Shown here one piece after another: positions 7,414 through 53,700 of a stretch of 64,000 nt of DNA. The stretch comes from Escherichia phage ELT1. The DNA lies in the sequence record MZ892903.1, one strand, 5' to 3'. Position numbers and translations under genes: made by a program. The notes under the pieces are model-generated. The model had not been told where the DNA came from. It was given only the letters and a program-made list of their open reading frames with translations, and made no database searches. The first letter of the stretch is position 1, and each line of letters opens with the position of its first letter.

Positions 7414-7429
7414 GGGACCGAAAGGTCCC
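7414..7429. terminator. Bidirectional stem-loop gggacc-GAAA-ggtccc flanked by A/T runs
   Basis: Sits between convergent genes 24 (+) and rnlB (-). Confidence 0.55.
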
Positions 7430-7437
7430 TTTTTTAT

Positions 7438-8442
7438 TTAACTTACCAATTCAATCCAAGTCGGACGAAGTACATCTTGTACCATTTTAACTAATTCCTT
7501 TTTAATCAAAGAAGGATTATCCGCTTGAGTTAAAGTAATACCTTCACGAGAAGTTTCTTCCAAAATATCTTGAACAGTTAGTCCCATCACCTTTCCAAAA
7601 TCTTTTGGACCAATTTCGCCAATTTTAGAAATAACGTTATTTACTCGGTTCAGTGTAACGTAACAAGCTAAAATTCCCAGCAATTTATTATCAGCTTCTG
7701 ACAGTTCAACTTTAGCTTTAATAGGCTTATCAGACTTTTTCTTTTCGCTAAATTTAGAGTTCTTGCATTTAATCGCTACACGATTGCCATTAGGCATCCA
7801 AAAAGGATAACAAGGTTTCAATACATATCCTTCAGCAGTAAATACTTCGCCTTTTGCTTCGGCATTCCAAACGCATTTATTTGCATCAACTAATCCAGCG
7901 TGGTCTACCGTAAAATTATAATCCTGGACGACAGAATCTAAATCATTTGGCAATTTAATAAGTTCTTCAAATTTACCACGACCCAAAAGTGGAGCCATTT
8001 TAAATTTGAATGTATTACAGAATGATTCCATCATATAATCATCGACATAAGTCACATCACCACTTTCTGTAGTAACAATAATGTCAAATACATAAAAATC
8101 TTTATCACCATAATCAACATTCTTCTGAATGCCAGGTCCAGCGAATTCGCCGAAGACTTGATAAGATACAACTGCCGAAGTTTCCATAATATCTTGTACT
8201 GCTTTAATGGAATCAGCGTAATTCTTCAAAATAATTTCATACCCAAAGAAATCTTCAGCAGGAAGAATCGGTCCAGTACGTTTAGCACAAGTTGCTTTAT
8301 CGCGTTCAATAATCAGTGAGAAATTTGTGCCATGAATCTTTTCACGAGCTACCCATTCGCCGCCAGTCAATCCTAAACTGTAAAGTTTTTCAATGAATTT
8401 AGAATTGTAATGATTTTCAAGACTGCTATACTTTTTAAACAT
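7438..8442 (-). CDS. rnlB: RNA ligase 2
   Basis: 334-aa ORF; N-terminus [25 protein letters not shown] and KIHGTN ligase motif match T4 Rnl2. Confidence 0.95.
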
Positions 8443-21546: not shown

Positions 21547-21550
21547 CAAT

Positions 21551-21568
21551 GGGGACCGAAAGGTCCCC
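21551..21568. terminator. Bidirectional stem-loop ggggacc-GAAA-ggtcccc
   Basis: 7-bp perfect stem between convergent genes 54 (+) and the 96-aa ORF (-). Confidence 0.55.
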
Positions 21569-21574
21569 ATATTT

Positions 21575-21865
21575 TTATTTACGGAATGAAATAAAAGCAG
21601 CAACTGAAGCAACTAAACTGTCTTCAATATAAACTTCAATTTTTACCGGAGCTTCTGACTCAAATTTACCTGTTACTACACCCTGAAAAATAATTTCAGT
21701 CTGTTCTGGCTTTGAAAAATTTTCAGAAGGAAAAATTCCGAACTTTTTATCTGTTCCAAAAATTTTAATAAATTCATCGTAAACCGCTTCGTTAAAAGCA
21801 TTATCAGCAGGAATAACGCCTTCAACTACAAGTTCTTGACCTAAAAAGCGTAAAGAAGATTTCAT
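21575..21865 (-). CDS. Hypothetical protein (alt.-3 position)
   Basis: 96-aa ORF; GAGGA ribosome-binding site and early-promoter cassette immediately upstream. Confidence 0.6.
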   Translation of the reverse strand: MKSSLRFLGQELVVEGVIPADNAFNEAVYDEFIKIFGTDKKFGIFPSENFSKPEQTEIIFQGVVTGKFESEAPVKIEVYIEDSLVASVAAFISFRK

Positions 21866-21872
21866 TTTGTGT

Positions 21873-21926
21873 TCCTCATGTTATGTCAGTAAGTCTACTA
21901 TAACACAACACGAGGGACTTGTAAAC
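21873..21926 (-). repeat. 54-bp early-promoter/5'UTR cassette, copy 1 (identical to 35691..35744)
   Basis: Exact 54-bp match; minus strand reads GTTTAC (-35) ... TATAGT (-10) ... GAGGA. Confidence 0.7.
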
Positions 21927-22286
21927 TACATTTTGAACTTTTTAGTACGCGTAATAGGCATGCGTCGATTTTATACTGTTTCATTGTTTGAAGAGCAGTA
22001 TCAAAAACAGCATTAATGACACCAATTGGATTTCCACCCAAGTTTTTAAGTTTAACTAATGATAGTTTCTCATTAACACCTATCATTACGATATGCATCA
22101 TTTTATCGCCTGGCTTAACGTTTTATCTGTATCATCGCCAGAGGTGTATGTACAAAATCTAAATCCAGGAAGCACGCTTTCTTCGCCGGCTTGAATAGCA
22201 AAAATTTGTGGTATTTTATGCTTAGGATTTAAGTTAACAACCGGCGCCGAAGCGCCGTCAAATAATTATGTAATAAGTTCCATGAT
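21898..22286 (-). pseudogene. Decayed partial duplicate of the alt 5' region
   Basis: Nucleotide and protein similarity to alt N-terminal region; initial frame stops after 5 codons (MELIT*); a residual 67-aa ORF (21898..22101) aligns to Alt about residues 64-128. Confidence 0.6.
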
Positions 22287-34839: not shown

Positions 34840-35189
34840 TTAGAAAGGTCCTGGATGTCTTCTGCGAACTTGTTGAAGGAGTTGTTGATTTGTTTTTCAA
34901 CCAATCCTGGCTTATGAGCCACCACATCCGCCTTCTTTGCGTCTTTGCGCAGTTTTTCATTTTCACGCTCAATAGCAGCAATTGCCTCACGATTTTTATT
35001 ATTCATCGCATCAATATAATTATACTGAATTCGCAAATTATTTAATGCTAAGGCGTTTTCATTGGACGTTTTTGTAATTTCTACAACAGACGTTTCTAAT
35101 CTTTCTACCTTATTTTTTAAAATAATAGATGTTCCGCCAAATGCTATTACAAGTAATAGCAATCCAGCTGTAAAATTACTTACATGCAT
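34836..35189 (-). CDS. Putative inner-membrane spanin (Rz-like)
   Basis: 117-aa ORF with N-terminal transmembrane helix followed by charged coiled-coil region. Confidence 0.65.
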   Translation of the reverse strand: MHVSNFTAGLLLLVIAFGGTSIILKNKVERLETSVVEITKTSNENALALNNLRIQYNYIDAMNNKNREAIAAIERENEKLRKDAKKADVVAHKPGLVEKQINNSFNKFAEDIQDLSK

Positions 35190-35686
35190 AAAGTTTTAAT
35201 AACCTCTACAATATCGTCTTGAGAAAGACCGTTAATTAAAATATGATGTTCAGCTGGAGATTTAGAAATTTTAAAGCATGCCTCAACATCTTCTGCCATA
35301 TCCGATGCACTACGATTTGGATTACTAACCCCAAGGCGGTGTTTTCCAGTCAAAGGATTAACGATGATGTAGCATTTGCAATTATTGATATGAACATTAG
35401 GTTGAGTCTGATTAATGAACACTTCACAATCATATTTCGCAAGCTGATTTTCTAAAAAGACTTTCATCTCTTCAACCGCATCAGGAAGCATATCACGGGC
35501 TTGCTCAAGACGACGATTTCGATATTCTTTAATGGTCGTTTTCCGCTTGACTTGCTTTGCTAAATCTTTCTTAAGATCGGTGATATATCCAACTCGACGA
35601 TTTCCTTTGAATACAGAAATCCCATCTGTAGTATCACCGTATGCTTCAACGACCATTTCAGTAGTAATAAGTTGTAAATCCATCAT
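35180..35686 (-). CDS. alc: Alc, host transcription unfolding/termination protein
   Basis: 168-aa ORF, N-terminus MMDLQLITTE; position between pseT cluster and rnlA as in T4. Confidence 0.75.
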   Translation of the reverse strand: MMDLQLITTEMVVEAYGDTTDGISVFKGNRRVGYITDLKKDLAKQVKRKTTIKEYRNRRLEQARDMLPDAVEEMKVFLENQLAKYDCEVFINQTQPNVHINNCKCYIIVNPLTGKHRLGVSNPNRSASDMAEDVEACFKISKSPAEHHILINGLSQDDIVEVIKTLCM

Positions 35687-35690
35687 AAAG

Positions 35691-35744
35691 TCCTCATGTT
35701 ATGTCAGTAAGTCTACTATAACACAACACGAGGGACTTGTAAAC
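35691..35744 (-). repeat. 54-bp early-promoter/5'UTR cassette, copy 2 (identical to 21873..21926)
   Basis: Exact 54-bp match immediately upstream of alc. Confidence 0.7.
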
Positions 35745-35747
35745 AGC

Positions 35748-37335
<1,588 letters not shown>

Positions 37336-46309: not shown

Positions 46310-46369
46310 TTTATTCTCCTCAGTAGTTGATAGGGTAATAGTATCACACTACTACCCTGCTGTAAACAA

Positions 46370-50708: not shown

Positions 50709-53700
50709 ATGGCCGAGATTAAAAGAAAGTTCAGAGCAGAAGATGGTCTGGACGCAGGTGGCGATAAAATAATCAACGTAGCTTTAGCTGATCGTGCCGT
50801 AGGAACTGACGGTGTTAACGTTGATTACCTAATTCAAGAAAACACAGTTCAACAATATGATCCAACTCGTGGATATTTAAAAGATTTTGTAATCATTTAT
50901 GATAACCGCTTTTGGGCTGCTATAAATGATATTCCAAAACCGGCAGGAGCTTTTAATAGCGTGCGCTGGAGAGCATTACGTACTGATGCAAACTGGACAA
51001 CTGTTTCGTCAGGACCTTATCAATTAAAGTCAGGTGAATCAATTTCAGTTAATACTGCAGCAGGAAATGATATCACATTTACTTTGCCAACTTCTCCAAT
51101 TGATGGAGATACTATCGTTCTTCAAGATATTGGTGGAAAACCTGGAGTTAACCAAGTTTTAATTGTAGCTCCAGTGCAAAGTATTGTAAACTTTAGAGGC
51201 GAACAAGTACGATCAGTACTAATGACCCATCCAAAATCACAGATAGTTTTAATTTTTAGTAATCGTCTGTGGCAAATGTATGTGGCTGATTATAGCAGAG
51301 AAGCGGTAGTTGTGACGCCAGCAAGTCTCTACCAGGCGCAGTCAAACGATTTTATCGTACGCAGATTTACTTCTGCTGCACCGATAAATATTAAACTTCC
51401 GAGATTTGCTAATCATGGCGATATTATTAATTTCGTTGATTTAGATAAATTAAATCCTCTTTATCATACAATTGTTACTACATATGATGAAACTACATCA
51501 GTACAAGAAGATGGAACTCATTCCATTGAAGGCCGTACATCTATTGATGGTTTCTTGATGTATGATGATAATGAGAAATTATGGAGATTATTTGACGGGG
51601 ATAGTAAAGCACGTTTACGCGTTATAACAACTAATTCTAATATTCGTCCAAACGAAGAAGTTATGGTATTTGGTGCGAATAATGGAACAACTCAAACAAT
51701 TGAACTTCAGCTTCCGACCGATATTTCCATTGGCGATACTGTTAAAATTTCCATGAATTACATGAGAAAAGGCCAAACAGTTAAAATCAAAGCTGCCGGT
51801 GAAGATAAAATTGCTTCTTCAGTTCAATTGCTGCAATTCCCAAAACGTTCAGAATATCCACCTGAAGCTGAATGGGTGACTGTTCAAGAATTAGTTTTTA
51901 ACGGTGAAACTAATTATGTTCCAGTTTTACAACTTGCTTATATCGAAGATTCTGACGGAAAATACTGGGTTGTACAGCAAAACGTTCCAACAGTTGAAAG
52001 AGTCGATTCTTTAAATAATTCTACTAGAGCAAGATTAGGCGTAATTGCTTTAGCTACACAAGCTCAAGCTAACGTCGATTTAGAAAATTCTCCACAAAAA
52101 GAATTGGCAATTACTCCAGAAACGTTAGCTAACCGTACTGCTACAGAAACTCGTAGAGGTATTGCAAGAATAGCAACCACTGCTCAAGTGAACCAGGACA
52201 CTACATTCTCTTTTGCTGATGATATTATCATCACTCCTAAAAAGCTGAATGAAAGAACTGCTACAGAAACTCGTAGAGGTGTTGCTGAAATTGCTACACA
52301 GCAAGAAACTAACGCAGGTACTGATGATGCTACAATCATCACTCCTAAAAAGCTTCAAGCTCGTCAAGGTTCTGAATCATTATCTGGTATTGTAACCTTT
52401 GTATCTACCGCAGGAGCTACTCCAGCTTCTAGTCGTGAATTAAATGGTACGAATGTTTATAATAAAAACACTGATAATTTAGTTGTTTCACCTAAAGCTT
52501 TGGATCAGTATAAAGCTACTCCAACACAACAAGGTGCGGTAATTTTAGCAGTTGAAAGTGAAGTAATTGCTGGACAGAGCCAAGAAGGATGGGCAAATGC
52601 GGTTGTAACGCCAGAAACGTTACATAAAAAGACATCAACTGATGCAAGAATTGGTTTAATTGAAATTGCTACGCAAAGTGAAGTTAATACAGGAACTGAT
52701 TATACCCGTGCAGTCACTCCTAAAACTTTAAATGACCGTAAAGCAACTGAAAGTTTAAGTGGTATAGCTGAAATTGCTACGCAAGTTGAATTCGACGCAG
52801 GCGTCGACGATACTCGTATCTCTACACCATTAAAAATTAAAACCAGATTTAACAGTACTGATCGTACTTCTGTTGTTGCTCTATCTGGATTAGTTGAATC
52901 AGGAACTCTCTGGGACCATTATACCCTTAATATTCTTGAAGCAAATGAGACACAACGTGGTACACTTCGTGTAGCTACGCAAGTTGAAGCTGCTGCAGGA
53001 ACATTAGATAATGTTCTAATAACTCCTAAAAAGCTTTTAGGTACTAAATCTACTGAAGCGCAGGAAGGCGTTATTAAAGTTGCAACTCAGTCTGAAACTG
53101 TAACTGGAACGTCAGCAAATACTGCTGTATCTCCAAAAAATTTAAAATGGATTGTGCAGAGTGAACCTACCTGGGCAGCTACTACTGCAATAAGAGGTTT
53201 TGTTAAAACTTCATCTGGTTCAATTACATTCGTTGGTAATGATACAGTCGGTTCTACCCAAGATTTAGAACTGTATGAGAAAAATAGCTATGCGGTATCA
53301 CCATATGAATTAAACCGTGTATTAGCAAATTATTTGCCATTAAAAGCAAAAGCTGTAGATAGTAATTTATTGGATGGTCTAGATTCATCTCAGTTCATTC
53401 GTAGGGATATTGCACAGACGGTTAATGGTTCACTAACCTTAACCCAACAAACGAATCTGAGTGCCCCTCTTGTATCATCTAGTACTGCTACGTTTGGTGG
53501 TTCAGTTTCGGCAAATAGTACATTAACTATTTCTAATACTGGAACGGCAACTCGTCTGATTTTTGAGAAAGGACCTCAAACTGGAACTAACCCAGCGCAG
53601 ACGATGACTATCAGAGTTTGGGGAAATCAGTTTGGTGGTGGATCAGATACAACACGTTCTACTGTATTTGAAGTTGGTGATGAAACATCTAATCACTTTT

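Follow-up and report, generated by a model that had tools for sequence, protein, structure and literature searches.

Two identical 54-nucleotide (nt) cassettes of Escherichia phage ELT1 each place an early-type promoter immediately upstream of a short leader and a Shine-Dalgarno sequence (SD), and in both of them the promoter spacer can pair with the leader and SD, so that a hairpin is predicted. This hairpin was missed in the initial annotation of the 64,000-nt stretch of record MZ892903.1 that was analysed here (the window). We consider it probable on balance that the cassette is a module of the T4 early type whose hairpin, formed in read-through RNA, masks the SD; that the copy upstream of alc is ancestral and the copy upstream of alt.-3 was transferred from it; and that the similarity of the two copies has since been maintained mainly by constraint.

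The window belongs to a Tequatrovirus and is about 97–98% identical to phages JEP6 and SG1. Its two cassettes are direct repeats, identical at 54 of 54 positions (100%) and 13,818 bp apart, in agreement with the initial annotation; their coordinates are given in Table 1. They form the only exact repeat of at least 25 nt returned by the repeat finder in the 64-kb window. A search with the 30-nt core of the cassette, allowing up to 3 mismatches, found 2 sites only in the window, against 0 expected from shuffles. The minus-strand layout had also been described correctly: each copy reads GTTTAC, an 18-nt spacer ending in TGT, TATAGT, 19 nt and GAGGA, and lies directly 5′ of a gene start. Set in the sigma-70 register, both copies give TTTACA and TATAGT separated by 17 nt (10/12 matches) with a TGn extended −10, and this is the top-ranked minus-strand promoter-like site in each of the two regions. 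The 40-nt flanks of the copies are unrelated to each other (14/40 and 10/40 identities); the −35 and the SD are therefore the exact limits of the repeat, and each copy makes up essentially the entire intergenic region. The end of copy 1 is separated from the alt.-3 ATG by 7 nt, and the end of copy 2 by 4 nt from the first ATG of alc and by 7 nt from the second, which is the one annotated in T4. In the 40 nt upstream, AT content is 75% at the alc copy and 62.5% at the alt.-3 copy (window mean, 63.8%), and A-tracts are present in both.

Table 1. Coordinates of the two cassettes, of the predicted hairpins and of the adjoining reading frames in the window.
Feature	Coordinates	Strand	Description
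Cassette copy 1 (alt.-3 copy)	21873..21926	-	-35 GTTTAC 21921-21926; spacer 21903-21920; -10 TATAGT 21897-21902; predicted +1 A 21890; SD GAGGA 21873-21877
Cassette copy 2 (alc copy)	35691..35744	-	-35 GTTTAC 35739-35744; spacer 35721-35738; -10 TATAGT 35715-35720; predicted +1 A 35708; SD GAGGA 35691-35695
Predicted hairpin, copy 1	21871..21918	-	5′ arm is the spacer, -10 near the apex, 3′ arm is leader plus SD; -23.0 kcal/mol, z -4.3
Predicted hairpin, copy 2	35688..35738	-	-26.2 kcal/mol in a 71-nt context, z -4.8; three extra pairs (AAG/CUU) outside the repeat
alt.-3, served by copy 1	21575..21865	-	96 aa, Pfam DUF5498; last gene of the leftward early unit, followed by terminator 21549-21570
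alc, served by copy 2	35180..35686	-	inhibitor of host transcription, Pfam ALC PF17527; T4 annotates the second ATG (35683)
rnlA ORF	35748..36908	-	stop TAA 4 nt upstream of the copy 2 -35
alt.-2 remnant ORF	21898..22101	-	67 aa; reads through the copy 1 5′ arm and stops at the TAG in TATAGT

Following the T4 annotation, the order on the minus strand is rnlA, copy 2, alc, pseT.3 and further genes to 31, rIII, the 30.x genes, 30, alt.1, alt, the alt.-1/alt.-2 remnants, copy 1, alt.-3, a bidirectional terminator and the convergent gene 54. The 96-aa reading frame recorded in the initial annotation next to copy 1 is alt.-3. The rnlA stop codon and the −35 of copy 2 are only 4 nt apart, so that read-through RNA reaches this copy from rnlA; the true rnlA start is probably internal to the reading frame, since relatives encode 374 aa. 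The repeated stretch had been described as non-coding, which has to be corrected for copy 1, entered by the alt.-2 remnant up to the TAG inside the −10. This remnant is frame-shifted in the window and in T4 alike. Together, the alt.-1/alt.-2 reading frames (21898-22286, minus strand) are what is left of a second Alt-like ADP-ribosyltransferase of about 685 aa, as they are in T4. In relatives the second Alt-like gene is intact in many cases (among them RB7 and six other loci), split in one and reduced in two, and where the 685-aa Alt paralogue is intact its TAG overlaps the first G of GTTTAC. The alt.-2 locus adjoining copy 1 is the variable part of the region among the 11 loci compared.

A terminator-like bidirectional hairpin, GGGGACCGAAAGGTCCCC, is located at 21549-21570 between the convergent alt.-3 and gene 54, and a near-identical stem, GGGACCGAAAGGTCCC, with a T-run recurs at 7414-7438. 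Elsewhere in the window, positions 52110-53035 hold diverged in-frame tandem or dispersed repeats (66-88% identity) in what is apparently a tail-fibre gene, and positions 2455-2549 an acidic codon repeat rich in GAA/GAC. T4 carries introns in td and nrdB, in the region corresponding to the window. A search of the whole 64-kb window against Rfam gave no family at gathering score, and no group I intron was detected in it. HNH and GIY-YIG insertions around nrdA/nrdB vary among three of the relatives.

In the predicted fold of the cassette RNA, the 5′ arm begins 1–3 nt after the −35, the −10 is located near the apex, and the whole SD falls within the 3′ arm with all of its bases paired. The Tequatrovirus stem has about 20–22 bp, with one bulge and three G-U pairs. 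The predicted +1 is the A located 7 nt after the −10, in the apical region of the hairpin. Since the 5′ arm lies upstream of this predicted +1, the hairpin can form only in read-through RNA. RNAs folded from the predicted +1, without the 5′ arm, were unstructured at both copies (−1.8 and −1.1 kcal/mol), no better than shuffles. The computed cost of exposing a 6-nt SD window was 9.8 and 13.1 kcal/mol in read-through RNA versus 1.6 and 3.6 kcal/mol in RNA with its own start. We also considered an intrinsic terminator. The stems are AU/GU-rich, the tails that follow them (CUUUAUGAUG and ACACAAAAUG) contain no U-run, and no terminator was called by the scanner at either copy; this assignment was rejected because a T-run is absent at both.

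Each copy would represent a complete module, consisting of a strong sigma-70 promoter, a start at the A, a leader of about 25 nt and the SD GAGGA. RNA entering from rnlA at one locus, or from alt and alt.-2 at the other, would hold both arms and fold, burying the SD, whereas RNA started at the cassette promoter would be devoid of the 5′ arm and keep the SD open. Under such a promoter-of-origin gate, alc and, in Tequatrovirus, alt.-3 would be translated only from their own immediate-early transcripts and would be silent on delayed-early or middle read-through RNA. As the hairpin is possible only in read-through RNA, selection on the pairing implies a function on read-through transcripts and, with the SD as partner of the spacer and no terminator tail, translational masking is the most economical reading. 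Time-resolved omics of T4 place alc and alt.-3 in the early-RNA/early-protein class and rnlA in the early-RNA/late-protein class, with alt.-1 and alt.-2 giving middle RNA and no detected protein (PMC9697503). These data fit two active early units. The promoter being of the T4 early type, with early RNA and early protein for both genes served and later classes for their upstream neighbours, the view of the initial annotation that the element is an early promoter with its 5′ untranslated region is supported.

We compared the corresponding region across the Straboviridae, where homologues of Alc are present in 1,138 phage records, by reading the rnlA-alc intergenic region in 15 lineages. The same design, built from different stem sequences and with an unchanged promoter position, was found upstream of alc in at least 10 lineages: Tequatrovirus, Karamvirus, Moonvirus, Roskildevirus, Bragavirus, Dhakavirus (two species), Winklervirus, a Klebsiella phage group and an S16-like group. 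In these 10 lineages the spacer pairs with its own SD, in folds of −15.6 to −25.7 kcal/mol (z −3.2 to −6.8). A MAFFT alignment of the cassettes was set aside, its 3′ arms being out of structural register, and tests free of register were used instead. When arms were swapped between lineages, pairing with the own arm averaged −18.0 kcal/mol versus −9.2 kcal/mol for crossed arms, and in 9 of 10 rows no other arm paired better than the own one (0/20,000 permutations as good). The arms thus covary. Within Tequatrovirus, 4 of the 5 variable sites of the main stem keep pairing, by changes from GC to GU or from GU to AU. Over the 16 cassettes of the 15 lineages, an A is located 7 nt after the −10 in 15, and the difference in SD exposure between read-through and own-start RNA amounts to 7.6–13.9 kcal/mol in 13. 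In Gaprivervirus and Biquartavirus the anti-SD segment is found between the −10 and the +1, still upstream of the predicted start, with a gap of about 10 kcal/mol.

Three lineages depart from this design at alc and, as the SD is not masked in their predicted folds, they count against the gate. In Kanagawavirus the hairpin is present with the SD outside of it, in Mosigvirus a long hairpin is lacking and the spacer holds just a mini-hairpin, and Acinetobacter phage ZZ1 carries a terminator-like hairpin followed by a T-run. Comparison of sense and antisense folding gave mixed results, Tequatrovirus favouring the sense strand and Karamvirus-type cassettes showing a slight preference for the antisense strand; this comparison alone does not establish an RNA-level structure across genera. 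Second BLAST places of the alc cassettes of other genera were considered as possible duplicates and rejected, since they correspond to promoter resemblance at the level of the family (for example CC31p108 and PEi20 regB). Both of these promoters show the same spacer-SD hairpin design (ATCTCCTTTTAG...CTAAAAGGAGAT for PEi20 regB and ATCCTCTT...AAGAGGAG for CC31p108), and their SD, GGAG, is the cleavage motif of RegB. In Gaprivervirus (UPEC07 and three other loci) the match to the alc homologue is broken into two pieces that together extend over about 740 nt, and two overlapping CDSs are annotated as 'inhibitor of host transcription' in UPEC07, which suggests an insertion or frameshift within alc.

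A search of related phage genomes for further copies, as had been proposed in the initial annotation, located the 54-mer in about 499 phage records, all Tequatrovirus and including T4, T6 and RB14, at 997 places; each genome carries two, and these occupy the same loci throughout. In T4 the copies differ from each other by one base. We extracted both copies from 16 genomes (32 sequences). The copies of one genome differ by 0–4 bases (mean 1.94), and identical copies occur only in this window and in one other genome. The distance between paralogues taken from different genomes is 2.10, compared with 1.94 within genomes (permutation p=0.24). A variable A/T site in the loop, position 33, is A in both copies here; in relatives it is A/T (SG1), T/A (RB7) or T/T, and a Fisher test detected no association of its alleles between copies (p=0.31). 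Ongoing homogenisation within Tequatrovirus was thus not detectable, either over the 16 genome pairs or at the A/T site. The −35 and positions 41–54, that is the 3′ arm and SD, are invariant in 32 of 32 sequences, and the narrow distribution of within-genome differences, of which the perfect identity seen here is one extreme, is, judging from this invariance, kept mainly by constraint.

The identity of the copies could alternatively reflect a very recent duplication, a recent conversion in this phage, or a mis-assembly. The 54/54 match and the A common to both copies at position 33 would be expected from such an event. As all four combinations at the A/T site exist among relatives, with no association between copies, the perfect identity can arise from allele assortment. 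Moreover, both loci are occupied in about 499 genomes and the flanks of both copies are unique and syntenic with T4. On these comparisons the recent event is largely refuted and we regard it as highly improbable. The 'recent duplication' proposed in the initial annotation is accordingly not sustained, the pair being genus-wide at the same loci, and the assembly artefact that it had named as an alternative is ruled out.

An older exchange between the two loci is suggested by their distribution. Homologues of alt.-3 (DUF5498) are located directly after alt in Dhakavirus, Gaprivervirus, Karamvirus, Kanagawavirus and Mosigvirus, where they are preceded by a different early promoter whose spacer has a mini-hairpin and not an anti-SD. 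Most genera have the anti-SD type at alc. Its presence there and its absence at alt.-3 elsewhere point to an ancestral state at alc and a derived one at Tequatrovirus alt.-3, so that the alt.-3 copy probably derives from the alc copy. In an ancestor of Tequatrovirus, ectopic recombination would have put the alc cassette in the place of the promoter previously present at alt.-3. Within a genus, identity between the alc and alt.-3 cassettes is 91% in Tequatrovirus, 87% in Dhakavirus and 77% in Mosigvirus, versus a between-genus baseline of 66% (exact permutation 2/720), and the sequence shared by alc and alt.-3 differs from one of these genera to another. Phage VR5 (Dhakavirus) has an identical 29-nt leader at alc and alt.-3 in one genome, with different spacers. 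The two cassettes of PhAPEC2 (Mosigvirus), each with a mini-hairpin, have GTTTACAAACAC and ATCAACAACAYGAGGA in common. Reuse seems to involve leaders and not only entire cassettes. The same 29-nt leader was observed in two Dhakavirus-like IMG/VR contigs before a third, unrelated gene (MINTFRKYGEMKVLHKDGR...), behind a different promoter. The gene conversion of a portable module put forward in the initial annotation is therefore partly supported, at genus-level depth, with alc/alt.-3 resemblance in three genera, and not as a recent or ongoing event.

The repeats had also been proposed to mediate deletion of the DNA between them. They are direct repeats, and 54 bp of homology is within the range usable by T4 recombination (stated in PMC2839356), so that the event is mechanistically possible. 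It would remove the block from alc through alt.-2, which contains genes 30 and 31 and is kept in every genome examined. Genes 30 (DNA ligase) and 31 (co-chaperonin) are essential in T4. A viable deletion was rejected on account of these two genes; recombination between the copies may occur and should not yield viable phage.

The cassette fits the architecture published for promoter-early stem-loops (PeSLs) of T4-type phages, to which it had been likened in the initial annotation. As defined by Arbiol et al. (2010, PMC2839356), a PeSL comprises an AT-rich upstream region, a sigma-70-like early promoter, a stem-loop mostly placed between the −35 and −10 or over the −10, and an SD with start codon; PeSL copies recombine, giving deletions and mini-circles. 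Comeau et al. (2014, PMC4122927) extended PeSLs to the T4/PST pair and gave TTTACW-N17-TAYWAT as promoter consensus. The promoter of the cassette is sigma-70-like, of early type, and near this consensus, with one −10 mismatch. Its stem-loop overlaps the −10, its GAGGA precedes the ATG by 4–7 nt, an upstream stop codon is located at its 5′ end, its copies are repeated in the genome and there is evidence of exchange between them. In contrast with PeSLs, its 3′ arm holds the SD and no U-tract follows, giving the appearance of a translational mask and not of a terminator. Translation is not discussed in the PeSL papers (PMC2839356, PMC4122927). Furthermore, the two copies flank a conserved block with essential genes and not a hyperplastic ORFan region, and the stem-loops of the PST/T4 pair were described just upstream of the promoter (PMC4122927), which is not the case here.

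A functional parallel is provided by T4 genes with inhibitory hairpins at their initiation regions, namely e, soc, 49 and I-TevI, and also segB and I-TevII/III (PMC3014915). In the first four of these, the DNA segment that specifies the 5′ strand of the SD-sequestering helix also contains a late promoter, and the lysozyme hairpin represses roughly 100-fold (PMC3014915). As in these genes, the SD of the cassette is sequestered on long transcripts and transcripts from the own promoter lack the 5′ strand, here by computation. The difference is one of timing: their promoter is late (TATAAATA) and the protein is delayed, whereas the promoter here is of the immediate-early sigma-70 type and translation is predicted to be early only. 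The late motif TATAAATA is absent from the cassette, and the T4 reviews consulted do not include alc and alt.-3 among genes gated by such hairpins. With an intrinsic terminator the cassette shares a stable hairpin at the end of the upstream gene, and differs from it in its lack of a U-run, in its AU/GU-rich stem and in the absence of a scanner call. Four other early promoters of the window, all on the minus strand and of the GTTTAC type, have hairpins around the −10, with the −10 in the loop (46367-46307, 32765-32703, 28791-28723 and 29183-29124; z −2.1 to −4.1). In the 29183 promoter the spacer TTCCTTTGTG pairs with the SD region CAAAGGAG; the hairpins at 46367 and 28791 leave the SD free, which speaks against the gate, and the 50663 promoter has no such hairpin.

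The stem-loop might instead act as a terminator, as an attenuator, or as a stabiliser of the 3′ end of the upstream mRNA, in which case the SD would fall within the stem only as a consequence of the short leader. A terminator or attenuator role was proposed for PeSL stem-loops by Arbiol et al. (PMC2839356); in RB49 these stem-loops lie between the −35 and −10 or over the −10, and one of them cut lacZ expression like a strong terminator. The chief argument for this role comes from the hairpins over the −10 that exclude the SD, at other early promoters of the window and at alc in PEi20; the T-run after the ZZ1 hairpin also agrees with it. It is opposed by the absence of a U-tract after the stem in both copies and in the alc cassettes of 12 other lineages, by stems that are AU/GU-rich and not of the G-tract/C-tract type of RB49, and by what is conserved, namely an anti-SD upstream of the +1, which persists even where the discriminator region, and not the spacer, contains it. 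We judge this explanation unlikely, while giving it real weight.

Two further explanations concern the duplex itself. It could be an RNA processing site, for example for RNase III, that splits rnlA from alc mRNA, and processing might then activate the downstream SD and not silence it. With about 22 bp and a single bulge, the Tequatrovirus stem falls within the sizes known for RNase III substrates at the T7 and lambda processing sites. The stems of other genera are shorter, with 16–19 pairs and large loops, and we found no T4 literature linking these sites to processing, which makes this proposal quite improbable. Alternatively, the inverted repeat could act as DNA, either as a cruciform or single-strand hairpin that tunes the opening of the promoter, or as a preferred site of recombination by which genes are moved, the RNA fold being irrelevant. 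Antisense folds as stable as sense folds in several genera, the occurrence of cassettes or leaders common to several loci, and reports of PeSLs as recombination sites (PMC2839356, PMC4122927) are consistent with a role in DNA. However, apical loops of 10–19 nt are unfavourable for cruciform extrusion, and the three G-U pairs of the stem, like the within-genus changes that make or resolve G-U pairs, are mismatches in DNA; the choice of the SD as pairing partner is also left unexplained. A purely DNA-level role appears very improbable.

Masking of the SD in read-through RNA therefore remains our preferred reading, with several qualifications. Because hairpins at other early promoters leave the SD free, the stem-loop may have a more general role. 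Masking at alt.-3 may be a by-product of cassette copying, since the alt.-3 loci outside Tequatrovirus are without it. At copy 1, alt.-2, if translated, would bring ribosomes through the 5′ arm, a further point against the gate at this locus. More tentatively, and with somewhat less than even confidence, we propose that alc is under a conserved gate across the Straboviridae, with an anti-SD kept upstream of its own immediate-early start (in the spacer or between the −10 and +1), that many PeSL stem-loops are translational insulators and not terminators, and that cassettes and leaders have been swapped between loci (alc, alt.-3 and others) by ectopic conversion.

T4 and hundreds of sequenced relatives already carry the element, which falls within known categories, and the mechanism proposed here varies themes familiar from T4. 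No promoter features are annotated at these two sites in the T4 GenBank records, and searches of the literature with sequence strings and keywords returned no paper describing this repeat or an alc hairpin. What the present analysis adds is a strongly covarying hairpin predicted to make translation dependent on the promoter, together with the exchange of cassette sequence between alc and alt.-3 that the comparisons indicate in several genera. For practical purposes, the two copies would offer phage engineering a compact, strong and self-insulating expression module for reuse, and they form a pair of 54-bp homologies to heed in the design of T4-type constructs. If the gate works as proposed, it would provide an alternative reading of PeSL stem-loops, and the T4 principle of a promoter placed within a hairpin would extend from late to immediate-early genes. 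It would also mean that a host-shutoff protein is confined, by information encoded in cis, to the first minutes of infection in spite of continued transcription from upstream.
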